Below are positions 9,783 to 48,456 of a DNA stretch of 64,000 nucleotides, piece by piece. The DNA is from Candidatus Nanoarchaeia archaeon. GTDB lineage: Archaea > Nanobdellota > Nanobdellia > CSSed11-243R1. A program made the position numbers and the translations under genes. The stretch is from assembly GCA_028713895.1 (NCBI GenBank), contig JAQTNH010000001.1, forward strand, positions 181,808 through 245,807, written 5' to 3'. The notes beneath the pieces are model-generated. The model saw only the letters and a list, made by a program, of their open reading frames with translations, searched no databases and was not told where the DNA came from. How positions within the stretch are numbered: the stretch's first letter is position 1; every line of letters starts with the position of its first letter.

Positions 9783-9787
9783 TTCAT

Positions 9788-15363: not shown

Positions 15364-15389
15364 TCCTTTTGTTTTCTTATTTTTGTTTT

Positions 15390-21862: not shown

Positions 21863-22054
21863 CTAATAAAGTTTAAAAGGGAGCATGCTCTATTCTAAAG
21901 ACAGGGAAATGTTGATGGTTGAGGTGGAAAAATGAATTCTAAGGGAGAGAGCAGACTAAATTTGATTCTAAACAGGTTCGGAGCGTCAAAAGCATCCGCA
22001 TCACTGAAGATTTTCCTCGCACTCATCATTTTCGGCATAGCGTCAGCTTTCCTC
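21856..22054. repeat. Copy 2 of the duplicated promoter plus signal-peptide module
   Basis: See 15390..15589. The TATA box is at 21872..21878. Confidence 0.9.
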
Positions 22055-34149: not shown

Positions 34150-34210
34150 TGCACAAGTTAGGAGATTCTGCGGAAGTATATGCTTTTTGGAAGCCTGCAG
34201 GGGAAAACAT

Positions 34211-34217
34211 TTAAAAA
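34211..34217 (+). promoter_or_regulatory. TATA box of the ORFan operon
   Basis: TTTAAAAA lies 29 nt upstream of the GGTGGGGTTCT leader. Confidence 0.45.
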
Positions 34218-34223
34218 CACATG

Positions 34224-34237
34224 TATACTGCAGGATA
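34224..34237 (+). promoter_or_regulatory. Palindromic operator-like box TATACTGCAGGATA (copy 1 of 4)
   Basis: Imperfect palindrome centred on CTGCAG, sitting between the TATA box and the leader motif. The same box occurs at 38383, 42921 and 43788. Confidence 0.5.
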
Positions 34238-34239
34238 CA

Positions 34240-34250
34240 GGTGGGGTTCT
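34240..34250 (+). promoter_or_regulatory. GGTGGGGTTCT leader motif
   Basis: Invariant 11-mer, 10-23 nt upstream of start codons at 8 loci. Confidence 0.55.
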
Positions 34251-34260
34251 GGGGCAAGTT

Positions 34261-34524
34261 ATGGCTAGTGAAGTGTATAAAAAAGTTATTGATATAATGA
34301 CACAAAGTGGGGTAAATCCTCTCAAAGCAATTTATGAGTTGCAGACTTATTGTGAAGAATCGAAAATATCTACGGAGGATTTTGATTATGGACACATCAA
34401 AGAATATAGGTTACACTTTTCAGAACCCGAACACGTAAAGAATTTGGAAAATAAAGTGGGTGCTCTTGCTGTCAAAAAAATTATGAGACGCCTTGAAAAG
34501 GTTGTTGAGGCAATAGAAAAATAA
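34261..34524 (+). CDS. ORFan operon gene 1 (87 aa)
   Basis: Start MASEVYKK, 10 nt after the leader motif. Confidence 0.5.
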   Translation: MASEVYKKVIDIMTQSGVNPLKAIYELQTYCEESKISTEDFDYGHIKEYRLHFSEPEHVKNLENKVGALAVKKIMRRLEKVVEAIEK

Positions 34525-34533
34525 AGGCATATT

Positions 34534-35103
34534 TTGGGTTTTAAGAGAGTAATGAGGCTAAGGATGGATGAACTGATAAAAATTCTGGACAAGGTGGGGA
34601 TTTGCCAGTGCGATAATTTGGACAAAGAACAGAAGGCTGTAGCAAAGGCAGTCAGTTTATACCTGAACAATAAACCCTGTTTGTACAGTGATGTTCTTGC
34701 CTGTGCATTGAGATTTATAGAACACAGGGGGCAGAAGGTTGCAACATGTGAAAGATATGCATTTCATCTGGAAGACGTTTCAAGTCAGCCATCAAATCCG
34801 TGTTTTGAACAAGAAGGAGTTTATTCGTCCAGCCTGCAGGATATGTTAGACAAAATAGTAAACGAAAGGGATGCGCCAGAATGTGCTGATTTTGACTACA
34901 CTATCAGGAGCAAAGAACCTGTAAAAAAGCCTGGTGCAGATGGATACCTGGACAAAATAAAGCCAATCACAGCCGCAAGCATGTTTTTTTACAAAGACAG
35001 AATACAGTTTTATAAATATCTCAAAAAATGCCTGAAAAATCCTGCCAAGATAACATATCAGGTTGATTTAGAAATGGCAGGGCCGTTGGTGCAGAACAGA
35101 TGA
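34534..35103 (+). CDS. ORFan operon gene 2 (189 aa, several Cys)
   Basis: Same strand, 9-nt gap. Confidence 0.5.
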   Translation: MGFKRVMRLRMDELIKILDKVGICQCDNLDKEQKAVAKAVSLYLNNKPCLYSDVLACALRFIEHRGQKVATCERYAFHLEDVSSQPSNPCFEQEGVYSSSLQDMLDKIVNERDAPECADFDYTIRSKEPVKKPGADGYLDKIKPITAASMFFYKDRIQFYKYLKKCLKNPAKITYQVDLEMAGPLVQNR

Positions 35104-35807
35104 ACCCAAATAAACTGTCAAACAATGACCTGAGATGGATTCATCAAAACCTGGGCAGAGTCCTTGAGGGATACGAAGCGTATATCGGCAATGGCATCGA
35201 GCTCAGGGCAGAAGGCCCTTTTGTACTGACTCCTGAAAAGCCGAACACTGCCAGAACCATTGTTACTGTATGGCAGGACGATGAAAAATTAGCAAAAATG
35301 TTTGCCATCCTGTTTAAGCACGGAGACGGAACAGGAGACGCAAACACCTACAAGCCAGGGCAGCTGATTGTGCCGTACTACTTACAATTTGAGAACAAGC
35401 CTGAAAGGATTTTTCCACGAAAAAAAGACTGTGAGGAAGAAATATTCCTGCCATTCTTCTCTGTAATCGGGGGAAAGACTTATGACAATATTGTTTCGCT
35501 GGAAGAGCTGACTGTTGACAGTGTTGAAAATCCAAAAACAATTGTCAGAGCCAAGACTCTGGGCAGTTCGGTAAAAGAATACGAAAATATGATATGCGGG
35601 GCGGATATTAAAAAACAACAGCCTTACCACCTGCGCACCACAGGATACAAGAACGGAGCAAGGTTCGGGGACCCGCACGCCATATATCAAAGGGACGACC
35701 TGGAATCAATACAGGTAGCAGGATTCATTTCGCTTGAAAAAGAAAATCCGCTCATCAGAATTTTCAGGGAGATACCTGCGCAGCCGTACAAAAAATGCTA
35801 TGTTTAA
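35100..35807 (+). CDS. ORFan operon gene 3 (235 aa)
   Basis: ATGA overlap with gene 2. Confidence 0.5.
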   Translation: MNPNKLSNNDLRWIHQNLGRVLEGYEAYIGNGIELRAEGPFVLTPEKPNTARTIVTVWQDDEKLAKMFAILFKHGDGTGDANTYKPGQLIVPYYLQFENKPERIFPRKKDCEEEIFLPFFSVIGGKTYDNIVSLEELTVDSVENPKTIVRAKTLGSSVKEYENMICGADIKKQQPYHLRTTGYKNGARFGDPHAIYQRDDLESIQVAGFISLEKENPLIRIFREIPAQPYKKCYV

Positions 35808-35819
35808 CGCTTTCGGACA

Positions 35820-36473
35820 ATGAAGAATATGACAAACAAATACCTTTTTTTTGCTGAAAAACTGGACGAGCTTTCAGAATTGTGTAATGACAAAGCCCTG
35901 GAAATGGGGGCGCGCAGCAAAAATCTTGCGCATATACTGTTAAGGGAACAGACGCCAGAATTTTACAGAATCTTTGTTGACATGGCACGTCTGGGATACA
36001 AGTACTCAATACCAAGCAGCACAGGTATTCTACTGAATTTTGTGGGCACAAAAGCCAAGGACAAAATTGTGACTCACATAAACCCCCAAAAAGCAATTCC
36101 CTGCGCTTTATTTTGCAAGAGCTTAGAATGGAGACACATGGACTATTTTCTTAAAAAATTAAAATGCACCCCATACGGACATGAAACAGAAATTTACTAT
36201 GTCGGGGGCCCAGAGATTATGGAAGCAATTGGTATTGCTGTTGAGAAAGGAGGGCCTTCATGCGAAGAGCGTTTTAATGACGGCCACAGGCTCTGCTTTG
36301 ATGCGAATAATATTTACAAGCTTAACAAACAAGACTTTGTGGGTTACCTTATGGATATGGTTACAGAAAAGGGGAAACACAATTATTTTGAATTAAGAAA
36401 CGCGGCTTTCCAGGCAGCAGGCACGAAAGAGCTCGGGATAGAGGCTGCGATAGAACTGATGATGGAAGGATAG
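35820..36473 (+). CDS. ORFan operon gene 4 (217 aa)
   Basis: 12-nt gap. Confidence 0.5.
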   Translation: MKNMTNKYLFFAEKLDELSELCNDKALEMGARSKNLAHILLREQTPEFYRIFVDMARLGYKYSIPSSTGILLNFVGTKAKDKIVTHINPQKAIPCALFCKSLEWRHMDYFLKKLKCTPYGHETEIYYVGGPEIMEAIGIAVEKGGPSCEERFNDGHRLCFDANNIYKLNKQDFVGYLMDMVTEKGKHNYFELRNAAFQAAGTKELGIEAAIELMMEG

Positions 36474-36476
36474 GAT

Positions 36477-36791
36477 GTGATTTTAGATATGGGCAAAAAG
36501 ACTGCGCCAGAATGCGTAGAAATTGACATGGCAAAAGGGAACCAAAAAGAGATAGCTGCGCGCATTGGCAAACATTCTGAAAACGGAACGCTTGAGGTAA
36601 GGCTGCTGTTCCCGGATGTCTGGAACGCAGACACATACTGCCTGAGCGGAAGGCTTCCAATTCTAGAGAAACCGCCTGTGCATCTGCTGCTGTACAGCCT
36701 GGCCAGCAATTACAACCAATTGTACTCATGTTCATACAAAAGTGGGGACAGCCATGCTGTGCTTGAGCCCCTTATGAAAAAAGAGCGTTGA
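36477..36791 (+). CDS. ORFan operon gene 5 (104 aa)
   Basis: 3-nt gap. Confidence 0.45.
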   Translation: MILDMGKKTAPECVEIDMAKGNQKEIAARIGKHSENGTLEVRLLFPDVWNADTYCLSGRLPILEKPPVHLLLYSLASNYNQLYSCSYKSGDSHAVLEPLMKKER

Positions 36792-36800
36792 ATTGCTGTT

Positions 36801-37346
36801 TTAATCTTCTGTCGTATCCCCGATACAGCTTATAATCTCTATGCTGCCCTCTGCAATGGAGTTCATGCCCAGTAAAGGGATAACTTTTATTGTTTTTTTA
36901 TTGATAACCTGAAGTGAATAATCCGCATAAGGAAATTCCAGATAACCGGCTTGTTCAGACAGTTCCAATGCTTTAGCAAAATTTGGAAGCTGTATTTTAT
37001 ACTCCTTTTCAGAATCTGTTAATTCTTCAAGGAAGGGGCGATAAAAAAGAGTAAAACCATAGCTTATTTTTGATTTATATCCATGTTCAACAATTTCAGC
37101 AGAATATACTTGTACATAATGGTCATGTACTTGGCTCTCTATCTCCTCACGAGAACCCTTAACACTAAGGATATGCAGTTTTGGCGTTTCTTCCATAAAA
37201 GGAGCAAAAAATTCCTTATTGGCTTTTAGGTATTCACTAAAATCTGGCTTGTAGCCTGGATATCTCTCTTTTATTTTTTCCCTTATTGCTTCAATCCTCT
37301 TTTTTATGAAGTCTTTTACAAAAGTAGTATTTGTCATATCTAACAT
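36801..37346 (-). CDS. Conserved hypothetical protein, paralog A of 39976..40509 (C-terminal ISCIGDTTED)
   Basis: About 70% identity to the paralog on the opposite strand 2.6 kb away. Confidence 0.55.
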   Translation of the reverse strand: MLDMTNTTFVKDFIKKRIEAIREKIKERYPGYKPDFSEYLKANKEFFAPFMEETPKLHILSVKGSREEIESQVHDHYVQVYSAEIVEHGYKSKISYGFTLFYRPFLEELTDSEKEYKIQLPNFAKALELSEQAGYLEFPYADYSLQVINKKTIKVIPLLGMNSIAEGSIEIISCIGDTTED

Positions 37347-37420
37347 ATTGGAATAACCATTAATAAACTTATTTCACTGAAGAGGGGTTAACAAGTCAGT
37401 TAAACTTCGCTGAATTGCTG

Positions 37421-38209
37421 TTAATCGAAGTTTGAGAATACGAGTATGCTGCTCTCAGGATGTGAGTAACGAAGGTTCTTTTCTTTTAAAAAGTGCCCCC
37501 TGAGATAAGAATCCACAAACTGTTCAAGGGAATACCATGTTGCATCTTCTCCCTCGAAATGCTTGACTTTTTTGCCGAACTTAAACCGCAGGTCATAGGT
37601 GGTGATTGTGCCAGCCTCTTCAGTTTCAACAGACTCTTTCTTAGCCAGTGTTATTTCGCCTTTCAGGACATCATCAACATAGACCAAAATCTTATTTTTT
37701 TCGCTGATAGGTTCGACCTTTTTATTGGCGTAAAACTCTGAAAATGCATTTTTGCCCTTATGTTTTACAGCATCCAAAAAGTAATTCTCGGCTTCACTAG
37801 AAGAAGGCGCATTTTTGTGAGCCATCACTTTCTTCAGGCTGGGCATAAAATTTTCAGATGTCTTTACAATAGCATTCAAATCCCGTCCTCCAGTGACATG
37901 AGTCAATCTTAACTTTCCTGCTTTGGCTTTTTCTGCAAGCTTTATCAGCTTTTCCTCGTTTTTGGGACTAATTTTTTTATTGTAAGGCAGCCCTGGCTTT
38001 GGGCTGTCTTTCAACAAAGAAAAATACTGGTCAGAAGTCAACAGAAAGTCCAATGCATTATAATCAATGTCTGTCAGGGAGTCTTTGTATACATTGAGAC
38101 TGCGATACTCCTTGTTGAGATGGTACTCTTTCTGGATATCCCTAAATTTATCTGACTTTGGCTTTTTATCCAAAGGTACTCCAGTTACGTATTTTATTAT
38201 GTGTTCCAT
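37421..38209 (-). CDS. Hypothetical protein (262 aa from MEHIIKY)
   Basis: ORF 37421..38257 with a probable internal start. Confidence 0.45.
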   Translation of the reverse strand: MEHIIKYVTGVPLDKKPKSDKFRDIQKEYHLNKEYRSLNVYKDSLTDIDYNALDFLLTSDQYFSLLKDSPKPGLPYNKKISPKNEEKLIKLAEKAKAGKLRLTHVTGGRDLNAIVKTSENFMPSLKKVMAHKNAPSSSEAENYFLDAVKHKGKNAFSEFYANKKVEPISEKNKILVYVDDVLKGEITLAKKESVETEEAGTITTYDLRFKFGKKVKHFEGEDATWYSLEQFVDSYLRGHFLKEKNLRYSHPESSILVFSNFD

Positions 38210-38382
38210 GATATGTAGCCTAGCATATCGTGATTTATAAATCCAACTCGCCAGCAAAACTACGCTTATTTCTGTTAGAAGAAGTTCTTAGAAAAAAGCC
38301 TTAATCCTTAAACTTCAGAAGACTTTTAGGAATCGTGCCATAGCTCTTTGATTTACAGCTTCGTTAAATTTAAAAGCAAGTA

Positions 38383-38396
38383 TATACTGCAGGATA
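38383..38396 (+). promoter_or_regulatory. Palindromic box TATACTGCAGGATA (copy 2)
   Basis: Preceded by CGTTAAATTTAAAAGC (BRE/TATA). Here the GGTGGGGTTCT leader is replaced by GGTGCTATAAAG. Confidence 0.5.
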
Positions 38397-38410
38397 TAGG
38401 TGCTATAAAG

Positions 38411-38737
38411 ATGGGATACCTGAGGGTCATAACTGAATTGCATGCCAGGAGAGCAGGGCTTGTGCTGGAAGAAAGAGAACTGTTTGAAAACTTAGGCAGC
38501 TCTGTTGATATTGGACAAGCAGCAAAACGAGGAGCTTATTCTTTACAGATAACAGAAACCGTGCACAAAAGCGAATCAGGAAAAATAAGCATAGACGAGT
38601 TTGTGGACATCATAGACACCCAAAAATCTGCAATAGTGTTCAGCATGGAAGGCAGTAGAATCTTTGACAGGGCAGAAGCAGAAAGAACGATAGAGCAAGA
38701 GATTAAAAAGTATTTTGTGGATCCTTTAGTTCTTTGA
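38411..38737 (+). CDS. Hypothetical protein (109 aa)
   Basis: Start MGYLRV, 15 nt after the palindromic box. Confidence 0.45.
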   Translation: MGYLRVITELHARRAGLVLEERELFENLGSSVDIGQAAKRGAYSLQITETVHKSESGKISIDEFVDIIDTQKSAIVFSMEGSRIFDRAEAERTIEQEIKKYFVDPLVL

Positions 38738-38786
38738 GCGCTCTCGGGGCGAAAGATTTTTATCTGTATACAGTTTAGAAACCTGC

Positions 38787-39134
38787 ATGGAAACAACAAT
38801 GTGGATGATTTTGGGCGCAATAATTGTGATTGCCCTGATATACGCAGTTGTTTTGGTTCACAAAAACAAAAAACTGCTAAAGCCATGGACTGACGAAACA
38901 TGGATTGAATCAGGCGGAATGTTTCTTTTGATCGGGTATGTCCTTTCTTTGCTGGGCATTGAAATGAGCGTATTAATGGCTATTGGTTCAATTTACTTTG
39001 TAATCGGGTTTGTTAAAAAACATATTATAAAAGAGAAGAAACTGAATGAAAGGCAGAGAATGTATGCAACAATAGGAATAGCTGTATTGGTTGCGCTGTG
39101 TGTTATTATTTTCTTAATCTTTGTTGTCAAATAG
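38787..39134 (+). CDS. Membrane protein (3 TM)
   Basis: 115-aa hydrophobic ORF. Confidence 0.5.
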   Translation: METTMWMILGAIIVIALIYAVVLVHKNKKLLKPWTDETWIESGGMFLLIGYVLSLLGIEMSVLMAIGSIYFVIGFVKKHIIKEKKLNERQRMYATIGIAVLVALCVIIFLIFVVK

Positions 39135-39260
39135 AGTCATGAAACGCTTTCTGGCAAGTTCTTTTGAGTTCCAGCTCTCTCAGGGTAATTTATTGTCAAT
39201 ATTGAAGAAAAATAAAAGAAAAATAAGAAAAAAGTTGGGGAATGACTAAATTTGTTAAAA

Positions 39261-39356
39261 TTACTCTGTTTCTTCTTGTGTTTCTTCAGCTGCGTTCTCT
39301 GCTGGTGCTGCTTTTTCTTCTTCGTGCTTGTGTGCGCTCTTTTTTGGTCTTGCCAT
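39261..39356 (-). CDS. 31-aa micro-protein MARPKKSAHKHEEEKAAPAENAAEETQEETE
   Basis: Strong Shine-Dalgarno site AAGGAGGT 7 nt upstream of the ATG. The longer ORF-track version is rejected. Confidence 0.3.
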   Translation of the reverse strand: MARPKKSAHKHEEEKAAPAENAAEETQEETE

Positions 39357-39547
39357 GGTAGAACCTCCTTTGATTTGGGTTCGTGATTTCAGAAAAAGGG
39401 TATTAATACGCCTTTCGAAAGGTATATAGGGAGTTTTGGGGGCTAGGGGTGTGGTCGGGGTATTTGTTTTCAATATGGAAATTAAAGCAGAGAAAGGTTT
39501 ATAAGTGACTACTTGTTAGTAATGATTTAGTAGCGGGTGGACAAAAA

Positions 39548-39934
39548 ATGGGAAAACTGTCTGGAATACAAAAGATATTGGCGGAATCCTCTGATAAAGA
39601 GTTAAAAACAAGTTTAGCAAAAGGAAGGATAAAGATTCCAGGAGTAGAATTATCGGTAGATTTTGATGCAATGCTGGCGATAAAGGATATTAAATCCTTT
39701 TTAAAAAAGCCTCCAGAGGAATACTTGATATATATTTCTTGTCCGTCTTGTCCAAACCATGACATAGATTCATTCACATTAAGTTATAATTCAACATCAG
39801 ATACTTTAGAATACTTTTCGGAAGCAGATAAAGATTGTATTGATCTTGGTGAAAATGGATGCAAAAATTATAAGTCCTGCAAGATGGTTAAGCTGTACAA
39901 TGAGCTTAAGAAACAAGAAAGTTCTGAAAACTAA
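39548..39934 (+). CDS. Hypothetical protein (128 aa, Cys cluster CPSCPNH...C...C)
   Basis: ORF. Confidence 0.45.
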   Translation: MGKLSGIQKILAESSDKELKTSLAKGRIKIPGVELSVDFDAMLAIKDIKSFLKKPPEEYLIYISCPSCPNHDIDSFTLSYNSTSDTLEYFSEADKDCIDLGENGCKNYKSCKMVKLYNELKKQESSEN

Positions 39935-39975
39935 TTTTTTCTTAAAATGTTCGCTGAATATGGAGTGATGATAAA

Positions 39976-40509
39976 ATGAAAAAATCTGATACTACGTTTA
40001 TAAGAGAATTCATAAAAAAGAGAATCATAAGGATAAGAAAAGAAGTGAATGAAAGATATCCAAACTTTAAAACAGATTTTAGCGAATATTTGGCAGCCAA
40101 CAAGGAATTTTTTGCACCTTTCATGGAAGAGAAACCTGAGCTGCATACCCTCACTGTCAAAGGTTCTCGTGAGGAAATAGAAGACAAAGTTCGTGACCAC
40201 TACATACAAATGTATTCTGCTGAGATTGTGGAAGAAGGGCGCAAATCAAAAGTAAGCTATGGTTTCAGTCTGGTATATCGTCCTTTTATTGAAAGATTAA
40301 CAGACCCTGAAAAGGAGTATACAATTCAACTTCCAAACTTTACTAAAGCCATGGGGCTGTTGGATCATTTAAAATTTCCTTATGAGGATTATTCAGTTCA
40401 AGTCATCAAGAAAAAAACTATAAAGATTATTCCATTATTAGGCATAGAATCTCTTGCACAAGGAGGAATAGAAATTATAAGTTGTATCGGGGATACGACT
40501 GAAGATTAA
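39976..40509 (+). CDS. Conserved hypothetical protein, paralog B of 36801..37346
   Basis: Preceded by the repeat TTCTTAAAATGTTCGCTGAATAT. Confidence 0.55.
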   Translation: MKKSDTTFIREFIKKRIIRIRKEVNERYPNFKTDFSEYLAANKEFFAPFMEEKPELHTLTVKGSREEIEDKVRDHYIQMYSAEIVEEGRKSKVSYGFSLVYRPFIERLTDPEKEYTIQLPNFTKAMGLLDHLKFPYEDYSVQVIKKKTIKIIPLLGIESLAQGGIEIISCIGDTTED

Positions 40510-40706
40510 AAATGACTGTTAATTGCCTTAACCGATTTTTTATTTCAGTAATTCTTTTGGGTCCCAGCTCTCTTAGGGGCAGGTTTAAAGGGAATTCAGC
40601 GCAGGGTTTTTGAGTCGATTACTGGAAATAGTGGACAACACCCTAAATTTGATAAAGATAAACCCTCATTAGATTTTACTATTGCAAAAATTCGTGAGGT
40701 GATATT

Positions 40707-40940
40707 ATGGATCTTGCTATAAAATTCTGGAAAAACTGGCTTGAAGAAAAGAATCCAATGAAAAGATGGAGAATGATTGAAAAATTGCCTGTGGTTATAG
40801 AGATTACTGATTATATTGCACTCAACAAGATTTCTAAAAAAGAAAGATTAAGAACGTTTTCACCAACACTTGATTCGCTATTCGAAGATTTAAAAGATAC
40901 AATTTATAGCCTGGAGCTAAAGAAGAAGACAAGAAAATGA
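40707..40940 (+). CDS. Hypothetical protein (77 aa)
   Basis: ORF. Confidence 0.35.
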   Translation: MDLAIKFWKNWLEEKNPMKRWRMIEKLPVVIEITDYIALNKISKKERLRTFSPTLDSLFEDLKDTIYSLELKKKTRK

Positions 40941-41050
40941 AACGTAGCGCTGCAATAAAGAAGTCAATAAAAGGAGTTTTAATATGAATTGCATGATTGG
41001 TACAATTAAATGGACAAAAGGTATAAATAGATGTACTTATTAGTAAAATA

Positions 41051-41602
41051 GTGAACGGTATGGTACAACAGTTTAGATTATCCAAAGTTTCGGGAAAATT
41101 TATTGAGATACTTCTGTGGCTTATCGGGCTAAATCGCGAAGAAATCTATGTTTCAGAGCTAAGCAAGGAACTAAAAATGTCAAAGTCAACAGTCATAAAA
41201 TGGCTTGAGGAATTAACCAAATGGGAGCTTGTAACCGAACGAAAGCGCGGAAACATGCATTATTACAGGATAAATGGAGAAAACCCAATTATAAAGCAAT
41301 TCAAAATCCTGCAAAGCGTTTCTGAATTGACTCCGCTCATGAAAAGCTTGAAAGGTATGGCTGAAGTTTATTTGTTTGGCTCTTCAGCGCGAGGCGAGGA
41401 CAGGCCAGACAGTGATTATGACATTCTTGTTGTAACCAAACTTAATTCAAATGAAGTCTTTAAGAAACTTAAGAATGAGGACAGACTCAAAAACAGGAAA
41501 ATAAGCCTGCTTATAGTAAAACCCTTTGAATATGCAGACATGGCAAAACATGATCCTGCACTTTACCAAAGGATAGAAATAGACAAAATCAGGCTGGTAT
41601 AA
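41051..41602 (+). CDS. Minimal nucleotidyltransferase (MNT) with N-terminal wHTH
   Basis: NTase motif LFGSSARGEDRPDSDYDILVV. Confidence 0.75.
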   Translation: MNGMVQQFRLSKVSGKFIEILLWLIGLNREEIYVSELSKELKMSKSTVIKWLEELTKWELVTERKRGNMHYYRINGENPIIKQFKILQSVSELTPLMKSLKGMAEVYLFGSSARGEDRPDSDYDILVVTKLNSNEVFKKLKNEDRLKNRKISLLIVKPFEYADMAKHDPALYQRIEIDKIRLV

Positions 41603-42075
41603 TGGACATAAACGAAGCAAAAGATGAAGGACTAATAAGTGATTTGCCTAAAGAAGAAAATGTTACAGACATTGTTGAAAAAGAAATAAAGTCTGCAGAG
41701 TATGACTTAAGCGAAGCAAAAGAAGGGTTCAGCAAGGGCAAGACAAAATGGCCTGTAGTACAGGCCTATTATGTTATATTTCATGCTGCAAGAGCGCTGA
41801 TGTATAAGTTCAAGCTGAAGGAAATAAAGCATGAGGGAATAGTTGTTTTCCTGGAAGAGAGGGTAAAAGTCGGAAAACTGAGAAACGAGTTTGTGACAAT
41901 ATTCAAATCGCTTAAATCAACTAGGGAAGACTCAAACTATGACAGCGATTTCAGCGAAGAACGCGCAAGAAAATCAATAGAAAGCGCAGAAGAGTTTTTG
42001 AAAGAAATGAAGGCGCAGCTGAGCGAAAAAAAGGCCGGAAAAACCGGCAAACAGTTTGTTTTCTTGTTGTTGTAA
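41602..42075 (+). CDS. HEPN-domain protein, partner of the MNT (MNT-HEPN module)
   Basis: Start overlaps the MNT stop. The HEPN-like motif is TREDSNYD. Confidence 0.65.
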   Translation: MDINEAKDEGLISDLPKEENVTDIVEKEIKSAEYDLSEAKEGFSKGKTKWPVVQAYYVIFHAARALMYKFKLKEIKHEGIVVFLEERVKVGKLRNEFVTIFKSLKSTREDSNYDSDFSEERARKSIESAEEFLKEMKAQLSEKKAGKTGKQFVFLLL

Positions 42076-42159
42076 AAGTCCAATAATTCTTTGAGTTTAG
42101 GGCTCTTTGGGCAGGGTTTTTGGGCTAAAAAGGGCACGCACTTATAACGAACGCAAGAA

Positions 42160-42513
42160 TTATCTGTCCTTATACCCAAATTTTTTATTATATTTTGGAT
42201 GATCAATGATGTCTAAAACAAAAGCAATGATTTCTATTTCGCTTTCATTGTTTGTAAGAGTATAAAGCATGCGCCAAAAATTCGGGAGCTCTATCCTGAA
42301 AAGGTTTGTGATGCCATATTTTTGTTTGTACTCTTCAGGTATGAGCTTCTTGGCTATCGGGTCACCATAGTGAGGATTAGATTTCAGAAATTCTACTTTG
42401 TTGTTCAGAGCATTAAGAATTATCTTTTCTGTTTTTGAGCCAGGCGCCTGTTCATTGAGGTATTTGTAAACTTCCTCTGCTTCAGGCGAAAGTATGACCC
42501 TTATTATCTTCAT
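42160..42513 (-). CDS. RelE/YoeB-like toxin candidate
   Basis: 117-aa basic protein. The C-terminal IEIIAFVLDIIDH pattern resembles YoeB/Txe. It overlaps the upstream small gene by 4 nt. Confidence 0.4.
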   Translation of the reverse strand: MKIIRVILSPEAEEVYKYLNEQAPGSKTEKIILNALNNKVEFLKSNPHYGDPIAKKLIPEEYKQKYGITNLFRIELPNFWRMLYTLTNNESEIEIIAFVLDIIDHPKYNKKFGYKDR

Positions 42514-42788
42514 AGTTCCACACCTGCTGCAATTGCCCTCTTAAGGTTCTGATTTGTATTGTGTATCCATGTTATGCCTTTCATTGTAATCAATATTTTA
42601 TTGCTTTTTTCAAGATATTCAAGAATTATTTTAAGGGTGTTGTGATTAATCTGTTTGGGAAGCCTTCGCTTAAGTTCAGCTATTGTAATTGCGCTTTCAT
42701 CCATGTTTGTCAGGACATTTTCCACCATGAAGACAGTATTAAGAGTAGGTGAATGTTCCAATTTTTCCATTTGAACCTGTTTTGCCAT
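42510..42788 (-). CDS. Putative antitoxin / small DNA-binding protein
   Basis: Start MAKQVQM. It is coupled to the toxin-like gene. Confidence 0.35.
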   Translation of the reverse strand: MAKQVQMEKLEHSPTLNTVFMVENVLTNMDESAITIAELKRRLPKQINHNTLKIILEYLEKSNKILITMKGITWIHNTNQNLKRAIAAGVEL

Positions 42789-42920
42789 ATTTATCACTCC
42801 GTATCATTTAGTTATTAATAAATAAGTAATAGTTACTATTTTATATAGTTACTCTTCGTTTGAGGTTCCAGTAATTTCTTGAGTCCTGGGGGCACGCTTC
42901 GTTAACTTTAAAAACCAATA

Positions 42921-42934
42921 TATACTGCAGGATA
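42921..42934 (+). promoter_or_regulatory. Palindromic box TATACTGCAGGATA (copy 3)
   Basis: Flanked by the TATA box TTTAAAAA (42907) and the leader motif (42940). Confidence 0.5.
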
Positions 42935-42939
42935 TAAGT

Positions 42940-42950
42940 GGTGGGGTTCT
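42940..42950 (+). promoter_or_regulatory. GGTGGGGTTCT leader motif
   Basis: See the motif family. Confidence 0.55.
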
Positions 42951-42973
42951 AGAATTAAATAAGCTGATGTTAA

Positions 42974-43717
42974 ATGAAAATCAAATTTCATGGCGTATCA
43001 AACGGCTATGCTTACGAAAACCAAAATTTGGGGTGTATTTGTTTAGATGATAAAATCCTTTTAGACTGTGGCATAACAAGTTTTCCACGACCTTATTTTG
43101 ATAGCTTAGATGCATTATTTTTGTCTCATGGACATAAGGATCACATAGTTGGTATAAGCTCGCTTACATTGGGCTTAGCTGTTGAAACAGACAGAAAAAC
43201 AAGAAGGGATAGGGATTTTTGCATCTATGTTCCTGCAGGCATAAAAGACAAAATAGAAGACCGTATTGATAAAACATACAAAGACAAAGTAAAGATATTT
43301 GAAAAGAATCCAGGGGATAAATTCAGATTTTTGGATGAATATGACATAAAAACTGTCAAAGTAGAGCACAAGGGAGATTGTTTAGCATACAGATTTGAGA
43401 AGGATGGAAAAAGTTTTGTTTATACTGGCGATGCTGTACCTTCTCAAGAAGTAATTGACCTTTCAAAAAATGTTGATGTGCTGATACATGAAGCCAGCTT
43501 TGTAAATAAGTTTAGAGAAGTGGCAAATAGCTGGAAACACTCGACTTCTGAACAAGCAGCAGAGGTTGCACAAAAGTCTGGTGCAAAAACACTGATTTTA
43601 ACATTAATCTCACCTCATGTAAGGCTGAATAATATGGAAGAATACCTGACTGAAGCACAAAATGTCTTTCTTGGCAAAATTATTATTGCATACGAAGGCC
43701 TGGTTTATGAGTTATAG
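42974..43717 (+). CDS. Metallo-beta-lactamase-fold hydrolase
   Basis: HxHxDH motif (HGHKDHIVG) and downstream His/Asp residues. Confidence 0.8.
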   Translation: MKIKFHGVSNGYAYENQNLGCICLDDKILLDCGITSFPRPYFDSLDALFLSHGHKDHIVGISSLTLGLAVETDRKTRRDRDFCIYVPAGIKDKIEDRIDKTYKDKVKIFEKNPGDKFRFLDEYDIKTVKVEHKGDCLAYRFEKDGKSFVYTGDAVPSQEVIDLSKNVDVLIHEASFVNKFREVANSWKHSTSEQAAEVAQKSGAKTLILTLISPHVRLNNMEEYLTEAQNVFLGKIIIAYEGLVYEL

Positions 43718-43787
43718 TGATGCTGTTTGATAATCCAGTAATTCTTTGAGTCCTGGGGGCACGGTTCGTTAACTTTAAAAACGACTG

Positions 43788-43801
43788 TATACTGCAGAAT
43801 A
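43788..43801 (+). promoter_or_regulatory. Palindromic box TATACTGCAGAATA (copy 4)
   Basis: TATA box at 43774 and leader motif at 43808. Confidence 0.5.
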
Positions 43802-43807
43802 TAGGTT

Positions 43808-43818
43808 GGTGGGGTTCT
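43808..43818 (+). promoter_or_regulatory. GGTGGGGTTCT leader motif
   Basis: See the motif family. Confidence 0.55.
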
Positions 43819-43832
43819 AAGAGGGAAAATAA

Positions 43833-44258
43833 ATGAATGGTGATAAGATGGATTACAGGCTGCCTAACAGGTATGTTAAAGCTACAGACCACAACAAAGA
43901 ACTGGAAGTGAATATGGACGCGGAAAGAATTCTTAAAATATGGTGTTCTGGCTGCAGCAAAAATAAGAAATGCGATTACATGCCAACATTGGTTTCAATG
44001 ATTGGCGTCACTGAAGTTGATAAAGCAGACGAGGAAAATTTGATGGAAACTATAACATTCATATACAGGCCTGATATGGACAGCAGCAGAGCTCCCTTTT
44101 GCAAGAATGCAGACGAGAAATCGATTGTACGTTTTGAGGAAGCTTCTGAAAGATTACGCAAGGAAATCGAGCTTAAAGAAAATTACAAGCGATCCCAAAA
44201 AGATAAATATCTTGGCTTAGAGATTAAAATAATTGGAGACACAGTAAACGATGAGTAG
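43833..44258 (+). CDS. WCSGC-motif protein, paralog 1 (141 aa)
   Basis: Shares the YRLP..YV...WCSGC...C...C pattern with the next gene. Confidence 0.55.
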   Translation: MNGDKMDYRLPNRYVKATDHNKELEVNMDAERILKIWCSGCSKNKKCDYMPTLVSMIGVTEVDKADEENLMETITFIYRPDMDSSRAPFCKNADEKSIVRFEEASERLRKEIELKENYKRSQKDKYLGLEIKIIGDTVNDE

Positions 44259-44268
44259 GTGGGGTTCT
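44258..44268 (+). promoter_or_regulatory. GGTGGGGTTCT leader motif (starts at the stop codon of the previous gene)
   Basis: 13 nt upstream of the ATG at 44282. Confidence 0.5.
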
Positions 44269-44281
44269 TGGAGTGGGATAA

Positions 44282-44704
44282 ATGAGCAATGACAAAAAAA
44301 ATTACAGACTGCCTGAAGGGTATGTTGAAACTGACGGAGATTGGGGAGTAGACTATAAAACAGCAGTTAATGTGCTCAGGAACTGGTGTTCTGGCTGCAA
44401 GAAAAAGGAAGATGGAAATTGTGAAACTGTGATAGACCTTGTAGGTTTATTGAGTATGGAAGAAATCCCTGGCGTAGCTTATGAGTTCATGACACGAATC
44501 AAGCCTAAGAAGGGTGGAAGAAGCATTCTTTACTGCACAAAGGCTGACAGCCTATCAATTGCATATTTTGAGGAAAGGCAGAGGGACTTAGAAAGAGAAA
44601 AAAGAAAATTAAAGGCTGCTATCGATGAAGGCTTTGCCGAAGCAGAAAAAGAATTAGCAAAAGGAAGAGAGGCAAGACTAAGAAAGTTGGGATTAAAGAA
44701 ATAG
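44282..44704 (+). CDS. WCSGC-motif protein, paralog 2 (140 aa)
   Basis: Paralog of 43833..44258. Confidence 0.55.
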   Translation: MSNDKKNYRLPEGYVETDGDWGVDYKTAVNVLRNWCSGCKKKEDGNCETVIDLVGLLSMEEIPGVAYEFMTRIKPKKGGRSILYCTKADSLSIAYFEERQRDLEREKRKLKAAIDEGFAEAEKELAKGREARLRKLGLKK

Positions 44705-44721
44705 ATGGAGAGTGATGAAAG

Positions 44722-44976
44722 ATGGAAAAACCATATCAAATAAAACCATATCAAGTTTTACAAGAATATCAAAGTTTACACGAAGGAATCAAACCTTTAA
44801 AACATGCTTCGAAGTATGCCCCAATAGTAGTAGAACTGGGAGAAACTGTAACTTTAAGCAGTTTAGGCATAGACACTTCCAGTAGACTGGCGTTTCTATG
44901 CAGCTTGCCTTCAGATACGGTAATGCATACAGACAGAGATGGACATGTTACATGCACATTCTCTATAGAGAAATAA
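44722..44976 (+). CDS. Hypothetical protein (84 aa)
   Basis: ORF. Confidence 0.4.
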   Translation: MEKPYQIKPYQVLQEYQSLHEGIKPLKHASKYAPIVVELGETVTLSSLGIDTSSRLAFLCSLPSDTVMHTDRDGHVTCTFSIEK

Positions 44977-44998
44977 ACAAATCTTGAGAGGGATATAA

Positions 44999-45481
44999 AT
45001 GAACAAAACGCTAACTGAAATTTTAAAAAAGGACCCGAAGGATGTAACTATCCAAGAAAAAGAGTGTCTGGATTTAGAAGAAATCAGTAAGTTAGCTGAT
45101 AGATTTAATAAGCAGTACGAAAGTCTCATACAGCAAGCCAATGAGCCATACAAAGACAAGGAAAATGTAAGTTTGGTGTTCTGCGATGGAAAACTTGTTA
45201 AGGCTTACACTATGCAACGTTATGATATCCCTTTTGATGAGATTTCTAAAATTGAACAAGAACAGGGCAAAGCATGTTATGTAGTTGAGATGATAAACAA
45301 ACCGTCTGAAGACGACATCCGTATTTTTGAACCCCAAACAGGCATAAGAGACTCCTACAAAAACCTTAATGATGCATATAAAAAAATGGGTGACGATATG
45401 CATACTTTTGAGCAGGAATTGCGTGAAGGAATCAAAGAAGTGCGTAAGGAAGTTAAATCGCTTGAAAAGAAGCAAAAATAA
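44999..45481 (+). CDS. Hypothetical protein (160 aa)
   Basis: ORF. Confidence 0.5.
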   Translation: MNKTLTEILKKDPKDVTIQEKECLDLEEISKLADRFNKQYESLIQQANEPYKDKENVSLVFCDGKLVKAYTMQRYDIPFDEISKIEQEQGKACYVVEMINKPSEDDIRIFEPQTGIRDSYKNLNDAYKKMGDDMHTFEQELREGIKEVRKEVKSLEKKQK

Positions 45482-45525
45482 AATTTTCTTAAAATGTTCG
45501 CTGAATATACATTAAACGAAGTTTT

Positions 45526-45828
45526 TTAATGCGATTTTTGATGTTTTTTATGGTTTTTTTGAACCTTTATTATTACTTTGCTTGCTTTTCCTGCTTCCAA
45601 GGCTGGCAAAAGGTGCGACAGGAACTGTTCTGCAGTCATCTTTCGGACTGTGCCATTGGTGGTCTGAGTCCATTGGCCTTTGACTTTCTTGTATTTCTGT
45701 TTCCAGCCGCTTTTCTTGATAATGAGATAGATCGTGCATTCGTCGTTCTTCATGATTTTAGCTCGTGTTAGACACACACGTTTACTTGTTTTGACTCTGC
45801 TTGCAGGGACAATGTTTTTGCCTGGCAA
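45526..45828 (-). CDS. Hypothetical basic protein
   Basis: ORF. The real start may be the internal MKNDEC. Confidence 0.3.
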   Translation of the reverse strand: MPGKNIVPASRVKTSKRVCLTRAKIMKNDECTIYLIIKKSGWKQKYKKVKGQWTQTTNGTVRKMTAEQFLSHLLPALEAGKASKVIIKVQKNHKKHQKSH

Positions 45829-46127
45829 GTCCTGTTTGTGCAGTCTGAGTCATCATTGCAGTAATCAGTGCAAATTCCTATGCTTTCATTTGCTTTTTGA
45901 GTGCAAATGCCTTCAGCGAAATTCAGGCATTCAACATAGCATATCTGGCCTGAGCTGCATTCATCATTTATGTGGCATTCTCCTGGATTATGCACATAGA
46001 CATGGTGCTCAACAGCTGTGAAATTTGGCTTAACAATCATAACGAGAGCGACAAATGCAAGAACAATAACAGCAAAAAGAATGTTTCTAGAACAAAAGAT
46101 GCATTTGAAATCTAATTTTTTAGCCAT
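45768..46127 (-). CDS. Secreted Cys-rich small protein (signal anchor plus about 12 Cys)
   Basis: Start MAKKLDF preceded by GGAGGG. The mature part is NPGECHINDECSSGQICYVECLNFAEGICTQ...CTDYCNDDSDCTNRTC. Confidence 0.5.
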   Translation of the reverse strand: MAKKLDFKCIFCSRNILFAVIVLAFVALVMIVKPNFTAVEHHVYVHNPGECHINDECSSGQICYVECLNFAEGICTQKANESIGICTDYCNDDSDCTNRTCQAKTLSLQAESKQVNVCV

Positions 46128-46150
46128 AGTTATCCCTCCAAAACATCCTG

Positions 46151-46303
46151 TCAAAGCTTGAATCTTTTTGGCTTCTTTTCTGTTTCCTCTTCTAATACAA
46201 GAGCGCCTACATAGCCGCATTTATTACATTGGTATTGGCCAAAATTGCCGCCCATGTAGAGGTCTATCTCTTTTGAGCGGCATTTTGGGCACATCTTTGC
46301 CAT
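46151..46303 (-). CDS. 50-aa zinc-ribbon micro-protein (CPKC...CNKCGY)
   Basis: Not in the ORF track. The arrangement TAATATG couples it to the upstream gene. Confidence 0.45.
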   Translation of the reverse strand: MAKMCPKCRSKEIDLYMGGNFGQYQCNKCGYVGALVLEEETEKKPKRFKL

Positions 46304-46304
46304 A

Positions 46305-46544
46305 TTATTTGCAGCAATTGTTGTTGCAGCTGCAGTGGCCTTTCTTCATCAGTGCAAATGCTATCACTAGCAATGCAAGAATCCACCATGCGATGCCATC
46401 AAAGATGATTCCTTTTGTGTTAAGTATCCACACAAGCAAGCCTGCGAAGACAAGTCGCGCTAAAAAGCCGCCGTGGCAGCCGCAGCACATTCCTTGCCAG
46501 GACCACACCATCATTTTTGGTTCAATTTTTGATTTTTTTGCCAT
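46305..46544 (-). CDS. Small membrane protein with CCGCHGG and CSCNNNCC motifs
   Basis: Start MAKKSK preceded by GAGGTG. Two TM helices. Confidence 0.5.
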   Translation of the reverse strand: MAKKSKIEPKMMVWSWQGMCCGCHGGFLARLVFAGLLVWILNTKGIIFDGIAWWILALLVIAFALMKKGHCSCNNNCCK

Positions 46545-46587
46545 ATTTTTACACCTCAAAGTTTTAAGATTTGCTCGAATCTTTTAA

Positions 46588-46854
46588 TCATGATTCGCGT
46601 TCAATTTCGCGGGCTTTTGTTTTTACGTCTACTACAACTTCGCGCTCTTTGTTAAGCACGCCAGTAAATTCTTCCAAATGTTTTATGCCTATGTCTGCCT
46701 GGTTTTTTGCATCCTCAAGAAGCTTTAAATTGTTCTTTTCAATAGCGCGATCTATTATAGTTTTGATGGTTTTGAGATTATTTGCTGCTTTTTTAATCTC
46801 TTCAAAGCCTATTCCCTCAAGCGCCTGAAGGTTCTTTGGCAGTTCTTTTGGCAT
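46588..46854 (-). CDS. Hypothetical protein (88 aa, start MPKELPK)
   Basis: ORF-track call trimmed to the Shine-Dalgarno-supported start. Confidence 0.4.
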   Translation of the reverse strand: MPKELPKNLQALEGIGFEEIKKAANNLKTIKTIIDRAIEKNNLKLLEDAKNQADIGIKHLEEFTGVLNKEREVVVDVKTKAREIERES

Positions 46855-46858
46855 GTAA

Positions 46859-47575
46859 TCACCCTTTTTTAATTTTGTAGTATATTTTCTTTCCAATGGC
46901 TTCTTTTTCCAGGGCGCCCAGCTCTGCGAGCCTGTTCAGCCTGAATGAAGCTGTTGAACGGGATAAATTGATATAGTCAGCGAGCTGGTTTGCTGTGACG
47001 CGCTCCTGGCGGCCGACCCAGTCAATAACTTCCTTGTCCTTGATTGTGAGCTGGCTTATGTGAGTTATTGCGCTGTCCAGAGTCTGTGAGGAAACTCCTT
47101 TTTCAGCTATTTCGTCCTTTGTTCGCTGCAATAGGTCAAGTATAAAGTCTAATTTCTCTAAATCATTGAGTTTTTCAAGGCGATGGTCCATTGACTTAAG
47201 AACATGATTTAATTCCTCTAAAATCTGGGAATTTATGATTTTAACCTGTGATAAAGGATGCTGCTGCGCTGCCTTTATAGTGTCTTCCCACTGCTTTATT
47301 GCTATGTGCGAAGCTTCTTCCTGCAGCTTTAGCTTTGTTGGCTCGTGTTGAACAGTTGATTGGCGCTCCTGCCTTATTTTGGCTAAATCTGCCTCAAAAT
47401 CATGTTTTAAGTGTTCGTCAACAGGTTCGTCAGTTGTTGATTGCTGTTCAACAGAATTTTTTTGCTCGTCTAGAAGGTAGGGCCTAACTATTTTTTCAGA
47501 ATCCATCTTTTCTACCGGAAGGCTGTCTTCAGGCTTGCTGCTGAAAAGACGTTTTAAAGCGTCTAATATCCCCAT
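46859..47575 (-). CDS. Transcriptional regulator with C-terminal wHTH and N-terminal coiled coil
   Basis: The wHTH segment is LADYINLSRSTASFRLNRLAELGALEK. Confidence 0.6.
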   Translation of the reverse strand: MGILDALKRLFSSKPEDSLPVEKMDSEKIVRPYLLDEQKNSVEQQSTTDEPVDEHLKHDFEADLAKIRQERQSTVQHEPTKLKLQEEASHIAIKQWEDTIKAAQQHPLSQVKIINSQILEELNHVLKSMDHRLEKLNDLEKLDFILDLLQRTKDEIAEKGVSSQTLDSAITHISQLTIKDKEVIDWVGRQERVTANQLADYINLSRSTASFRLNRLAELGALEKEAIGKKIYYKIKKG

Positions 47576-47639: not shown

Positions 47640-47940
47640 CGCGCGAGCGCACCTGTTGGCGCAGTTCCAACACATCCAACACTTTAGTCAACAACTTCGA
47701 CACATTCGACACATCATCCAACACATTCGACAGTCAACACATCCAACACTTCCAACATATGTTGAACACATGCTTAATTTGCCTATTTTTTCCTTCAAAT
47801 TACGTGGTTTTAGTGTTCAACAGATTCGTCAAAAACCCAACAGATTCAACAGTCAACACATTCGACAGTCAACAAGTTCGACAACAAGTTCGACACATTC
47901 GTCAACAAGTTCGACAGATGGTCCAACACATAGATTAGAG
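47640..47940. repeat. Iteron-like degenerate direct-repeat array with a 9-bp inverted repeat
   Basis: More than 20 copies of short units (TTCGACAC/G, ATCCAACAC, GTCAACAC/AAG). The inverted pair is GTTGAACAC (47762) and GTGTTCAAC (47815). Confidence 0.6.
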
Positions 47941-48108
47941 CTGAAGTATAGTATTACATTATTATTCAATATTGAAATCAAATAAAGTGAGATGGGTTTT
48001 TAGGAGTAAAAAGAGAGGGTGGGCCTAAGTTGGTAAGAGGTGAGAATAAGGGGTCAAAAAGTGAGGGTTCTAAGAGAGATGTTTGAAAAGAAGGCAAAAA
48101 TGGCGAGA

Positions 48109-48456
48109 TTAACTGTTGTTTCGTTTAATTAAGTCTTCTACAATTAGTTTTGGGTCAATATCTTTGTTTTTCAGGCGAAACATGCGCATCCTGATTCCTG
48201 TTGACTCGTAAACGGCTTCTGGTTCGAGCATTTCCACAAAATTCTGGAGGTATTTGTCAATCAAGTAGCTTACTGCATAGGGTTTCAGGCTTGTATTCTT
48301 TGCTATTTTGCGTATCCAGACCCAAGCTTCCTGTGTTTTAAGGTATGCAAGCACCTTGAAAACCTTATGCATTGGGTCGCGTTCAGATGGCTGACGCTGC
48401 TTTCGAACTGACTTTAACTCGAATTCTTTGGCGCAGTGTGGACAAACGACCTTCAT
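48109..48456 (-). CDS. Zinc-ribbon (CPHC) plus wHTH-like small regulator (115 aa)
   Basis: Start MKVVCPHCAKEF with the Shine-Dalgarno site AGGTG. The ORF-track N-terminal extension is rejected. Confidence 0.5.
   Translation of the reverse strand: MKVVCPHCAKEFELKSVRKQRQPSERDPMHKVFKVLAYLKTQEAWVWIRKIAKNTSLKPYAVSYLIDKYLQNFVEMLEPEAVYESTGIRMRMFRLKNKDIDPKLIVEDLIKRNNS

Follow-up and report, generated by a model that had tools for sequence, protein, structure and literature searches.

Why should one short palindrome recur, always on the same strand and always at the same distance from a TATA box, in front of four transcription units of an archaeal chromosome? The locus lies in a 64,000-nt stretch of a contig from Candidatus Nanoarchaeia archaeon (JAQTNH010000001.1 of assembly GCA_028713895.1, positions 181,808 to 245,807), which we refer to as the window and number from its first letter. 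A first-pass annotation of this DNA had noticed the palindrome between TATA box and leader and read it as the operator of a co-repressed group of genes. Here we define the element, hereafter the box, as an 18-nt palindrome of the form T-R-TAT-N-CTG-CAG-N-ATA-Y-A, whose half-sites abut between CTG and CAG, and we consider it fairly probable that it is the operator of a homodimeric repressor and defines a sub-regulon of accessory genes.

The box and its four promoters

The four boxes of the window all lie on the plus strand within a 9.6-kb stretch of a gene island, and were located exactly where they had first been placed, with 16-nt cores that read TATACTGCAGGATACA at 34224, TATACTGCAGGATATA at 38383 and 42921, and TATACTGCAGAATATA at 43788. 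The full sites and their scores against a position weight matrix (PWM) are:

34222..34239, plus strand: box 1, TGTATACTGCAGGATACA, 26.0 bits
38381..38398, plus strand: box 2, TATATACTGCAGGATATA, 27.9-28.2 bits
42919..42936, plus strand: box 3, TATATACTGCAGGATATA
43786..43803, plus strand: box 4, TGTATACTGCAGAATATA, 28.6 bits

The description of the element as an imperfect palindrome centered on CTGCAG holds, whereas its length, put at 14-16 nt, was an underestimate, as the palindrome reaches 18 nt. A search for TATACTGCAGGATATA with up to three mismatches returned nine strand-matches, made up of the four palindromic sites read on both strands and one weak match, compared with a mean of 0.33 matches in the shuffled window, and none of 100 shuffles got to nine. 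Against the symmetrized 18-nt PWM the boxes score 26.0-28.6 bits, whereas the next best site in the 64 kb scores 10.7 bits and the maxima of the shuffles average 9.8 bits. The weak fifth match, at 11806, falls inside the open reading frame (ORF) of an HD-domain protein (10698-11912), has no TATA box and, at 10.7 bits, was set aside as chance level. We also considered and rejected a link to PstI-type restriction-modification: CTGCAG is found 54 times in the window compared with 52 expected, and since it is not avoided, such a link is unsupported.

Each box is part of a compact promoter, whose other elements are as follows:

34210..34216, plus strand: TATA box of promoter 1, TTTAAAA
38369..38375, plus strand: TATA box of promoter 2
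42907..42913, plus strand: TATA box of promoter 3, after TTCGTTAAC, which resembles a B recognition element (BRE)
43774..43780, plus strand: TATA box of promoter 4
34240..34250, plus strand: leader GGTGGGGTTCT, directly 3′ of box 1
42940..42950, plus strand: leader GGTGGGGTTCT, 3 nt after box 3
43808..43818, plus strand: leader GGTGGGGTTCT, 4 nt after box 4
42868..42884, plus strand: 17-nt upstream repeat CCAGTAATTTCTTGAGT / CCARTAATTYYTTGAGT, with copies at 42080-42096 and 43735-43751

At all four promoters the distance from TTTAAAA to the 16-nt core is exactly 7 nt (5 nt to the 18-nt palindrome), in place of the 5-10 nt that had been claimed. The leader, which had been said to follow the box immediately, does so at site 1 (0 nt) and comes close at sites 3 and 4, but is missing at site 2, which instead reads GGTGCTATAAAGATG / GGTGCTATAAAG and has an ATG 12 nt downstream of the box. 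Extended conservation at three of the promoters was borne out, as sites 2-4 have ~45 nt in common at 82-89% identity; only sites 3 and 4 are further joined by an 89-nt direct repeat of 84% identity (42858-42946 and 43725-43813).

The same type of TATA box and the same leader also occur at four box-less promoters of the window (10675, 28554, 31574 and 49425), where the two are separated by 21-24 nt of unrelated T-rich sequence, compared with 23-27 nt in the box promoters, and other promoters of the island lack the box as well. Because TATA box and leader occur without the box in the same window, the box is an add-on to a subset of promoters.

The leader itself is an 11-mer with eight exact copies in the window (10675, 28554, 31574, 34240, 42940, 43808, 44258 and 49425), all on the plus strand, 10-23 nt 5′ of an ATG and followed by a separate Shine-Dalgarno-like GGAG/GGTG. 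It usually lies ~21-27 nt 3′ of a TATA box, close to the expected start site. It is also found inside operons directly after a stop codon (44258, and position 1134 of L026; loci from other assemblies are given here as L numbers) and in two copies within one 5′ untranslated region (UTR) of L041, so that it tracks the start codon and not the start site. The leader is kept in L017, L018, L021, L026, L036, L041 and L047, with the variants GGTGGGGTCCT, GGTGAGGTTCT and GGTAGGGTTCT. Its role may lie in enhancing translation, in processing or in marking the boundary of a cassette. The 17-nt upstream repeat sits just past gene ends and before the BRE/TATA, and has a further copy in L021 at 1653.

Copies in related contigs, symmetry and promoter position

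Public collections were scanned with a pattern anchored on TTTAAA-N8-core (TTTAAA-N8-TATACTGCAG-N-ATA). Among 185,579 species genomes, which do not include the window's own, seven loci matched, and the only convincing copy is that of L008, from a Nanoarchaeia metagenome-assembled genome (MAG), which equals the site of box 4 over 20 nt, TATA box included. The matches in L007 and L011 were rejected for lack of the extended pattern, and the bacterial matches fail this 18-nt pattern too. In JGI metagenomes the same scan gave 35 loci, many of them related to the window organism by their GC content of 0.36-0.44, by the presence of GGTGGGGTTCT or a one-base variant of it, and in some cases by orthologous genes, such as an 88% ortholog of window 12411-13091 in L017, a 66% ortholog of the XerA-like gene in L018 and L049, and homologs of the nucleotidyltransferase/HEPN pair in L014. 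These relatives were sampled in only a few sediment and groundwater projects. In total, ~12 of the ~29 distinct scan matches fit the extended pattern, where a rough estimate puts the number expected by chance at ~0.65. Among the 2.9 million viral contigs of IMG/VR, neither a strict nor a relaxed TATA-plus-box pattern found any copy.

Searching the fetched DNA for the box alone, with no TATA constraint, raised the site counts: L036 and L030 have four box sites each and L021 has two, all on the minus strand, and L047 has one. The sites found in this way (the four of the window, L021:1593, three in L036, the one in L047 and three in L030) all keep the 7-nt spacing. There are thus ~25 further non-redundant copies in related contigs, or ~30 sites in all, spread over the window and ~15 distinct contigs. 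They precede mostly unrelated genes, including MarR-like, SET-domain and nucleotidyltransferase genes and many ORFans, and are often clustered and co-oriented. Across the 360 kb of fetched DNA and the window together (424 kb), every site of at least 22 bits stands in the TATA register and none is coding. A longer dispersed repeat with copies outside promoters had been named as a finding that would speak against an operator; no such non-promoter copy was found at this threshold, only sites 3 and 4 share as much as 89 nt, and the flanks of most copies are unrelated. A miniature inverted-repeat transposable element or other dispersed repeat was accordingly rejected, as conservation is confined to the promoter and coding copies of at least 22 bits are absent from the 424 kb.

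When 18 non-redundant sites of the window and of 12 other contigs are aligned, their conservation is mirror-symmetric. Positions ±1, 2, 5, 6, 7 and 9 form complementary pairs in 18 of 18 sites and ±3 in 16 of 18, ±4 is fully degenerate in either arm and pairs in just 3 of 18, and ±8 is restricted to R in the left arm and to Y in the right. The four columns left free by the search pattern (−1, 0, 15 and 16) read T, R, Y and A in all 18 sites, and the CTGCAG center is the best-conserved part, with 2.1 bits per column. At least eight unrelated classes of sequence are found 5′ of the TATA box, and the five free spacer bases differ between copies whose box is unchanged, so the constancy of the box is not just the result of recent copying. 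Conservation and non-conservation that are both symmetric point to two identical protein subunits and not to a hairpin, and the pattern supports the predicted binding of a dimeric protein.

Leaderless genes in the relatives indicate where the box lies relative to the transcription start. At L030:1411, L030:8275, L025 and L043 only 0-5 nt separate the box from an ATG. Given a TATA box 7 nt upstream of the box, these genes can be expressed only from leaderless transcripts that start right behind it, which makes the box untranscribed promoter DNA. With the start site taken from these genes, the box would span roughly −1/−5 to −18/−22. This agrees with the earlier proposal that its position is that of a typical archaeal repressor operator, as the leaderless genes place the box at about −1 to −22.

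Absence of the box from orthologous promoters had likewise been named as adverse to an operator, and we found it to be kept. A MarR-like gene of L049 (120 aa, MarR_2-like) and its 88% ortholog in L047 both have the box in front of them in differing neighborhoods, as the gene adjoins a XerA-like gene in L049 and a PIN/ribbon-helix-helix pair in L047, and the L047 box, TATTCTGCAGAATA, is a perfect palindrome. Two gene families of the window are also box-headed elsewhere: the product of 34261-34524 (87 aa) has a 59% homolog in a box-headed operon of L026, and that of 36489-36791 (100 aa) has a 52% homolog in a box-headed operon of L030.

From these comparisons, binding, repression and the coding location of the factor can be predicted as follows. 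The factor would be a sequence-specific homodimer, most likely a winged-helix or helix-turn-helix repressor, each monomer of which would read a 9-bp half-site, 5′-TRTATNCTG-3′. With 5 nt between the TATA box and the 18-bp site, and 0-5 nt between the site and the start, the bound dimer would leave access to TBP and TFB and occupy the DNA that RNA polymerase must enter and melt, so that the promoter would be off until the factor is released. In the window, the four units at 34261-36791, 38411-39134, 42974-43717 and 43833-45481 would come under common control, and in related Nanoarchaeia the same TATA-7 nt-box module would serve other, mostly unrelated accessory genes. We expect the factor to be encoded outside the window.

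Three of the other loci carry features of their own next to the box. In L019 and L041, a conserved segment of ~70 nt (GAGTTGGSAACTCGCAACGCAKGGCATAAGCTCRCGAGCTTAA...) lies between the box and differing downstream genes, and in L041 it stands between the two leader copies; this segment may be a small inserted element or a non-coding RNA. In L008 (the Nanoarchaeia MAG STB_88), ~140 nt after the box promoter (7500-7640, minus strand) contain no ORF of at least 30 aa and run toward two convergent tRNA genes, one of which has an insertion. This stretch has no Rfam match at the gathering score and may also be a non-coding RNA.

Genes behind the boxes, the island and candidate binding proteins

The transcription units headed by the boxes are:

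34261..36791, plus strand: ORFan operon headed by box 1, encoding proteins of 87, 179, 235, 214 and 100 aa
38411..39134, plus strand: 108-aa ORFan and 115-aa membrane ORF behind box 2
42974..43717, plus strand: metallo-β-lactamase (MBL)-fold hydrolase of 247 aa, RNase Z-like, behind box 3
43833..45481, plus strand: box-4 operon, encoding a 141-aa WCSGC protein, its 140-aa paralog, and ORFans of 84 and 160 aa

The proteins of the box-1 operon belong to no family in Pfam, PHROGs or PADLOC, and the gene at 38411 encodes 108 aa, one fewer than first stated. The hydrolase matches Pfam Lactamase_B_2 (E = 2e-22) and, in the PDB, RNase Z (E = 8e-19); our own Pfam scan found only Lactamase_B_2/B/B_3 and did not reproduce a precomputed listing of PF23023 (Anti-Pycsar_Apyc1), and a role of the hydrolase in cyclic-nucleotide degradation is possible but unsupported. 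The 140-aa WCSGC paralog has its own leader copy at 44258 and no box. No homolog of the 141-aa WCSGC protein was found among 5.8 billion proteins, and searches with the 141-aa and 87-aa proteins gave no match beyond the query itself or a single relative.

The island has a GC content of 0.37-0.40 compared with 0.44-0.46 in its flanks, and almost all of its proteins lack a Pfam, PHROGs or PADLOC family. It contains two toxin-antitoxin modules, a winged helix-turn-helix (wHTH)-nucleotidyltransferase/HEPN pair (41060-42075) and a RelE-like/wHTH pair (42160-42797, minus strand). PADLOC recognized only the wHTH-nucleotidyltransferase of the HEPN/MNT pair and PHROGs gave only a generic hydrolase match, while Rfam found one tRNA in the window and nothing else. 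The window proteins are recorded under MAG GCA_028713185.1, contigs JAQTPB01 ('Candidatus Nanoarchaeia archaeon', DPANN), whose assembly is interrupted at both ends of 39044-46659. The first 34 kb and last 14 kb of the window carry ordinary genes, including those for a tRNA thiolase, a DEAD helicase, a XerA-like recombinase (9788-10594), a P-type ATPase, a T2SSE-family ATPase and tRNA-Phe.

We observed several further features in the window and around the recombinase genes. Two paralogous ORFans of 181 aa (36801-37346, minus strand) and 177 aa (39976-40509, plus strand) are inverted relative to each other, ~2.6 kb apart and without a family. The HEPN/MNT pair has its counterpart in L014 at 1-989, and its nucleotidyltransferase has an N-terminal winged helix that matches wHTH models of the Csa3/CasR type. 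Two giant paralogous genes, 15467-21826 (2119 aa) and 21932-27601 (1889 aa, with a Peptidase_S8 match), have upstream regions that are 92% identical (15368-15592 and 21833-22057), and internal repeats of ~267 nt lie within the giant-gene region at 24.2-26.0 kb. The ORF at 47656-47985 (109 aa) is filled by degenerate short ACACATTCGACA-like units and adjoins a wHTH gene of the MarR_2 type (46859-47575). Divergent from the XerA-like recombinase gene (9788-10594, minus strand), a box-less promoter with the same leader drives the gene for an HD-domain protein. In L049 the divergent neighbor of the recombinase gene (9056-9973) is instead the box promoter of the MarR-like ORFan. The start annotated there, which gives 305 aa and overlaps this box, probably makes the protein too long; its ortholog in the window has 268 aa.

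Several observations weigh against a repressor operator. Among the regulator genes that we examined in the window and the box-bearing contigs, no binding protein was identified. The MarR-like protein of L049 (P0002) is encoded by the only regulator gene that stands directly behind a box, there and at its L047 ortholog, but it is an ORFan too: a single ortholog turned up among 1.84 billion representatives, and the window encodes nothing related to it. A protein so restricted cannot be the general box binder. The wHTH genes near the island of the window (3712-4254, 46859-47575, 48109-48456 and 51698-52582) have no box in their own promoters and are not common to the other box-bearing islands. 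Two promoters also fit poorly: that of L014 is an orphan with no gene behind it that faces the 3′ end of a convergent permease gene, and the TATA box of L027 more plausibly serves a gene on the opposite strand, which would put the box upstream of the BRE. Furthermore, the transcription start is a position deduced from the leaderless genes, and the invariant 7-nt register, like the partial similarity of the spacers, could stem from the common descent of a promoter module that was copied, rather than from an independent operator.

At L027 (380-460) the TTTAAAT is palindromic, and the leaderless gene on the opposite strand has a good BRE, CAAAAGT, with its ATG 23 nt away. Archaeal factors bound upstream of the BRE can activate rather than repress.

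P0002 was rejected as a regulator identified through autoregulation, given its single ortholog and the lack of a window relative. The 95-aa wHTH antitoxin encoded divergently from promoter 3 was also rejected, as its own conserved promoter carries different repeats, TAGTTA; its 88% ortholog in L036 has no adjoining box. An Lrp/AsnC gene inside the L030 island (6132-6599), and the wHTH-nucleotidyltransferase gene (41060-41602), which in the window as in L014 immediately precedes a box promoter, are leads only.

Alternative explanations and known systems

Of the alternatives to a repressor operator, a portable promoter survives best. The TATA box, box and leader would then form a strong core-promoter module with no dedicated regulator, spread by duplication or homologous recombination, in which the palindrome is incidental, for example as an easily melted AT-rich stretch. 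Consistent with such a module, the 89-nt repeat connects sites 3 and 4, units of the form TTCGTTAAC-TTTAAAA-...-box-AGTGGTGGGGTTCT are common to the window, L021 and L026, the 7-nt register does not vary, and box promoters are clustered and co-oriented (four plus in the window, four minus in L036, four minus in L030 and two minus in L021). Homology breakpoints also fall at module edges, and the comparable promoter/terminator cassettes (PeSLs) of T4-type phages mediate modular shuffling (PMC2839356, PMC4122927). The mirror symmetry, however, including that at ±4 and ±8, is predicted neither by contacts of RNA polymerase and TFB nor by melting, and the most conserved part is the GC-containing CTGCAG center. 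Box-less promoters with the same TATA box and leader have unrelated T-rich sequence in the same place, and with unrelated upstream flanks in most copies, recent copying cannot explain the constancy of the box. We regard a promoter module without a dedicated regulator as doubtful.

The islands in which the boxes lie are mosaic, and some of their joints coincide with the edge of the box. Nucleotide homology between L026 and the window sets in at 34240, precisely where the leader starts; the L026 copy of this leader lies within an operon, behind a SET gene, whereas the window copy has a TATA box and box fused to it. Further along, the homologous segments skip from 34544 to 39109 and from 39497 to 40543 of the window, which relative to L026 thus carries two insertions, one of them containing box 2. 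Homology with L014 takes in the nucleotidyltransferase/HEPN genes and the upstream repeat, continues through TATA box and box, and stops exactly at the 3′ edge of the latter. The 17-nt repeat copies at 42080 and 42868 bracket the toxin-antitoxin pair at 42160-42797 (minus strand), which recurs in a different context in L036 (1077-1714) at ~80% nucleotide and 88% protein identity, and the bracketing repeats look like an insertion or recombination footprint.

These joints raise the further idea, to which we give a low probability, that the TATA-box-leader block is a portable cassette that shuffles ORFan cassettes in DPANN islands, as a counterpart of the PeSLs. Recombination between co-oriented copies, or at the junction of box and leader, would insert, delete or re-promote genes, and each acquired cassette would automatically fall under one repressor. 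Shuffling is compatible with a repressor operator and may add to it. Judged by what characterizes PeSLs, the case consists of two to four co-oriented modules in each of four islands, of the breakpoints in L026 and L014 and of the upstream repeats that bracket a toxin-antitoxin insertion, which are too few for statistics. If the module does shuffle cassettes, this would explain how ORFans come to be regulated from arrival.

A decidedly unlikely variant of the operator would assign the box to a mobile element, with the islands as integrated viruses or plasmids and the box as the site of their immunity repressor. The low GC content of the island (0.37-0.40 compared with 0.44-0.46 in the flanks), its ORFans and toxin-antitoxin modules, the contig breaks that bound 39044-46659, the mosaic gene content and, in L049, the recombinase gene that adjoins the box-headed MarR-like gene would all suit such an element. 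Yet the island has no capsid, replication or integrase genes and only the hydrolase match in PHROGs, the two scans of 2.9 million viral contigs gave no copy, and the L049 recombinase is the ortholog of the XerA-like gene that lies among the core genes of the window. No att-like repeats flank the island, the only direct repeat being one of 14 nt at 32333/51792 that is probably due to chance, and other lineages have the box before housekeeping-type genes, namely the PP-loop ATPases of L025 and L043.

It is highly improbable that the box is a site for a tyrosine recombinase, similar to dif, attC or lox, at which gene cassettes are exchanged. The box is a dyad with a 6-bp center, the islands are mosaic, homology with L014 ends at the 3′ edge of the box and that with L026 starts at the box/leader junction, and the L049 box adjoins a XerA-like gene orthologous to window 9788-10594. 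Tyrosine-recombinase core sites, however, are typically 28-34 bp long, whereas only 18 bp are conserved here, in many copies (four in 10 kb) that are locked 7 nt from a TATA box just before the start site. The breakpoints lie at the box edge and not in a central spacer, the recombinase gene of the window has no adjoining box, and no recombinase is encoded in the island.

Finally, a transcribed 5′-UTR hairpin that controls translation or stability, which the nearness of the palindrome to the 5′ end of transcription units might suggest, is effectively refuted, as folds from box to ATG are no more stable than shuffles (z of +0.1 to +2.1), the bases at ±4 fail to pair in 15 of 18 sites and show no compensatory change, and leaderless ATGs right after the box mean that the box cannot be transcribed.

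DPANN archaea are uncultivated and have tiny genomes with few recognizable regulators; to our knowledge almost nothing is known of their gene regulation and no operator motif has been described in this phylum, and we found no paper describing the motif or DPANN promoter operators. As a repressor operator, the 18-bp site at ~30 promoters predicts a regulon of lineage-specific accessory genes, possibly for host interaction or defense. The box can serve as bait to capture the regulator and as a marker of variable islands in new MAGs.

How the box relates to known elements can be judged by comparing each in turn. With the core sites of tyrosine recombinases (dif/XerA, attC) it has in common a dyad with a 6-bp center, a XerA-like neighbor in one relative and a cassette-like array, but it is too short, has too many copies and is TATA-locked, with breakpoints at its edge. 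The PeSLs of T4-type phages are bacterial sigma-70 promoters joined to terminator stem-loops (PMC2839356, PMC4122927). Like the box modules, they are short, repeated and co-oriented promoter modules in hyperplastic, ORFan-rich regions in which homology breaks at the modules; the box module differs in combining an archaeal TATA promoter with a protein-type palindrome on a cellular chromosome, and its recombination is deduced from two breakpoints and one bracketed toxin-antitoxin insertion. The autoregulated operators of the MarR family are, like the box, 18-bp palindromes of abutting half-sites, and a MarR_2-like gene stands behind the box in L049 and L047, although the MarR-like protein in question has a single ortholog and no counterpart in the window.

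The class that the box would join is that of the archaeal repressor operators. MDR1 of Archaeoglobus, LrpA and Phr of Pyrococcus, TrmB/TrmBL1 and NrpR, among others, bind dyad sites between the TATA box and the start and block recruitment of RNA polymerase. The box likewise is a dyad that directly follows the TATA box and ends at the start, one site is used at several promoters, and by the same predicted mechanism RNA polymerase would be kept from the promoter once TBP and TFB are in place. Its sequence, TRTATNCTGCAGNATAYA, matches no operator known to us, including the TGM (TATCAC-N5-GTGATA), the sites of NrpR (GGAA-N6-TTCC) and SurR (GTTN3AAC) and the AT-rich sites of Lrp-type regulators, and we know of no regulon described for DPANN archaea. 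By its sequence the box would thus be a new archaeal operator motif within the already known class of dyad operators, set apart from the other members by an invariant register to the TATA box and by target genes that are almost all lineage-specific ORFans in variable islands.

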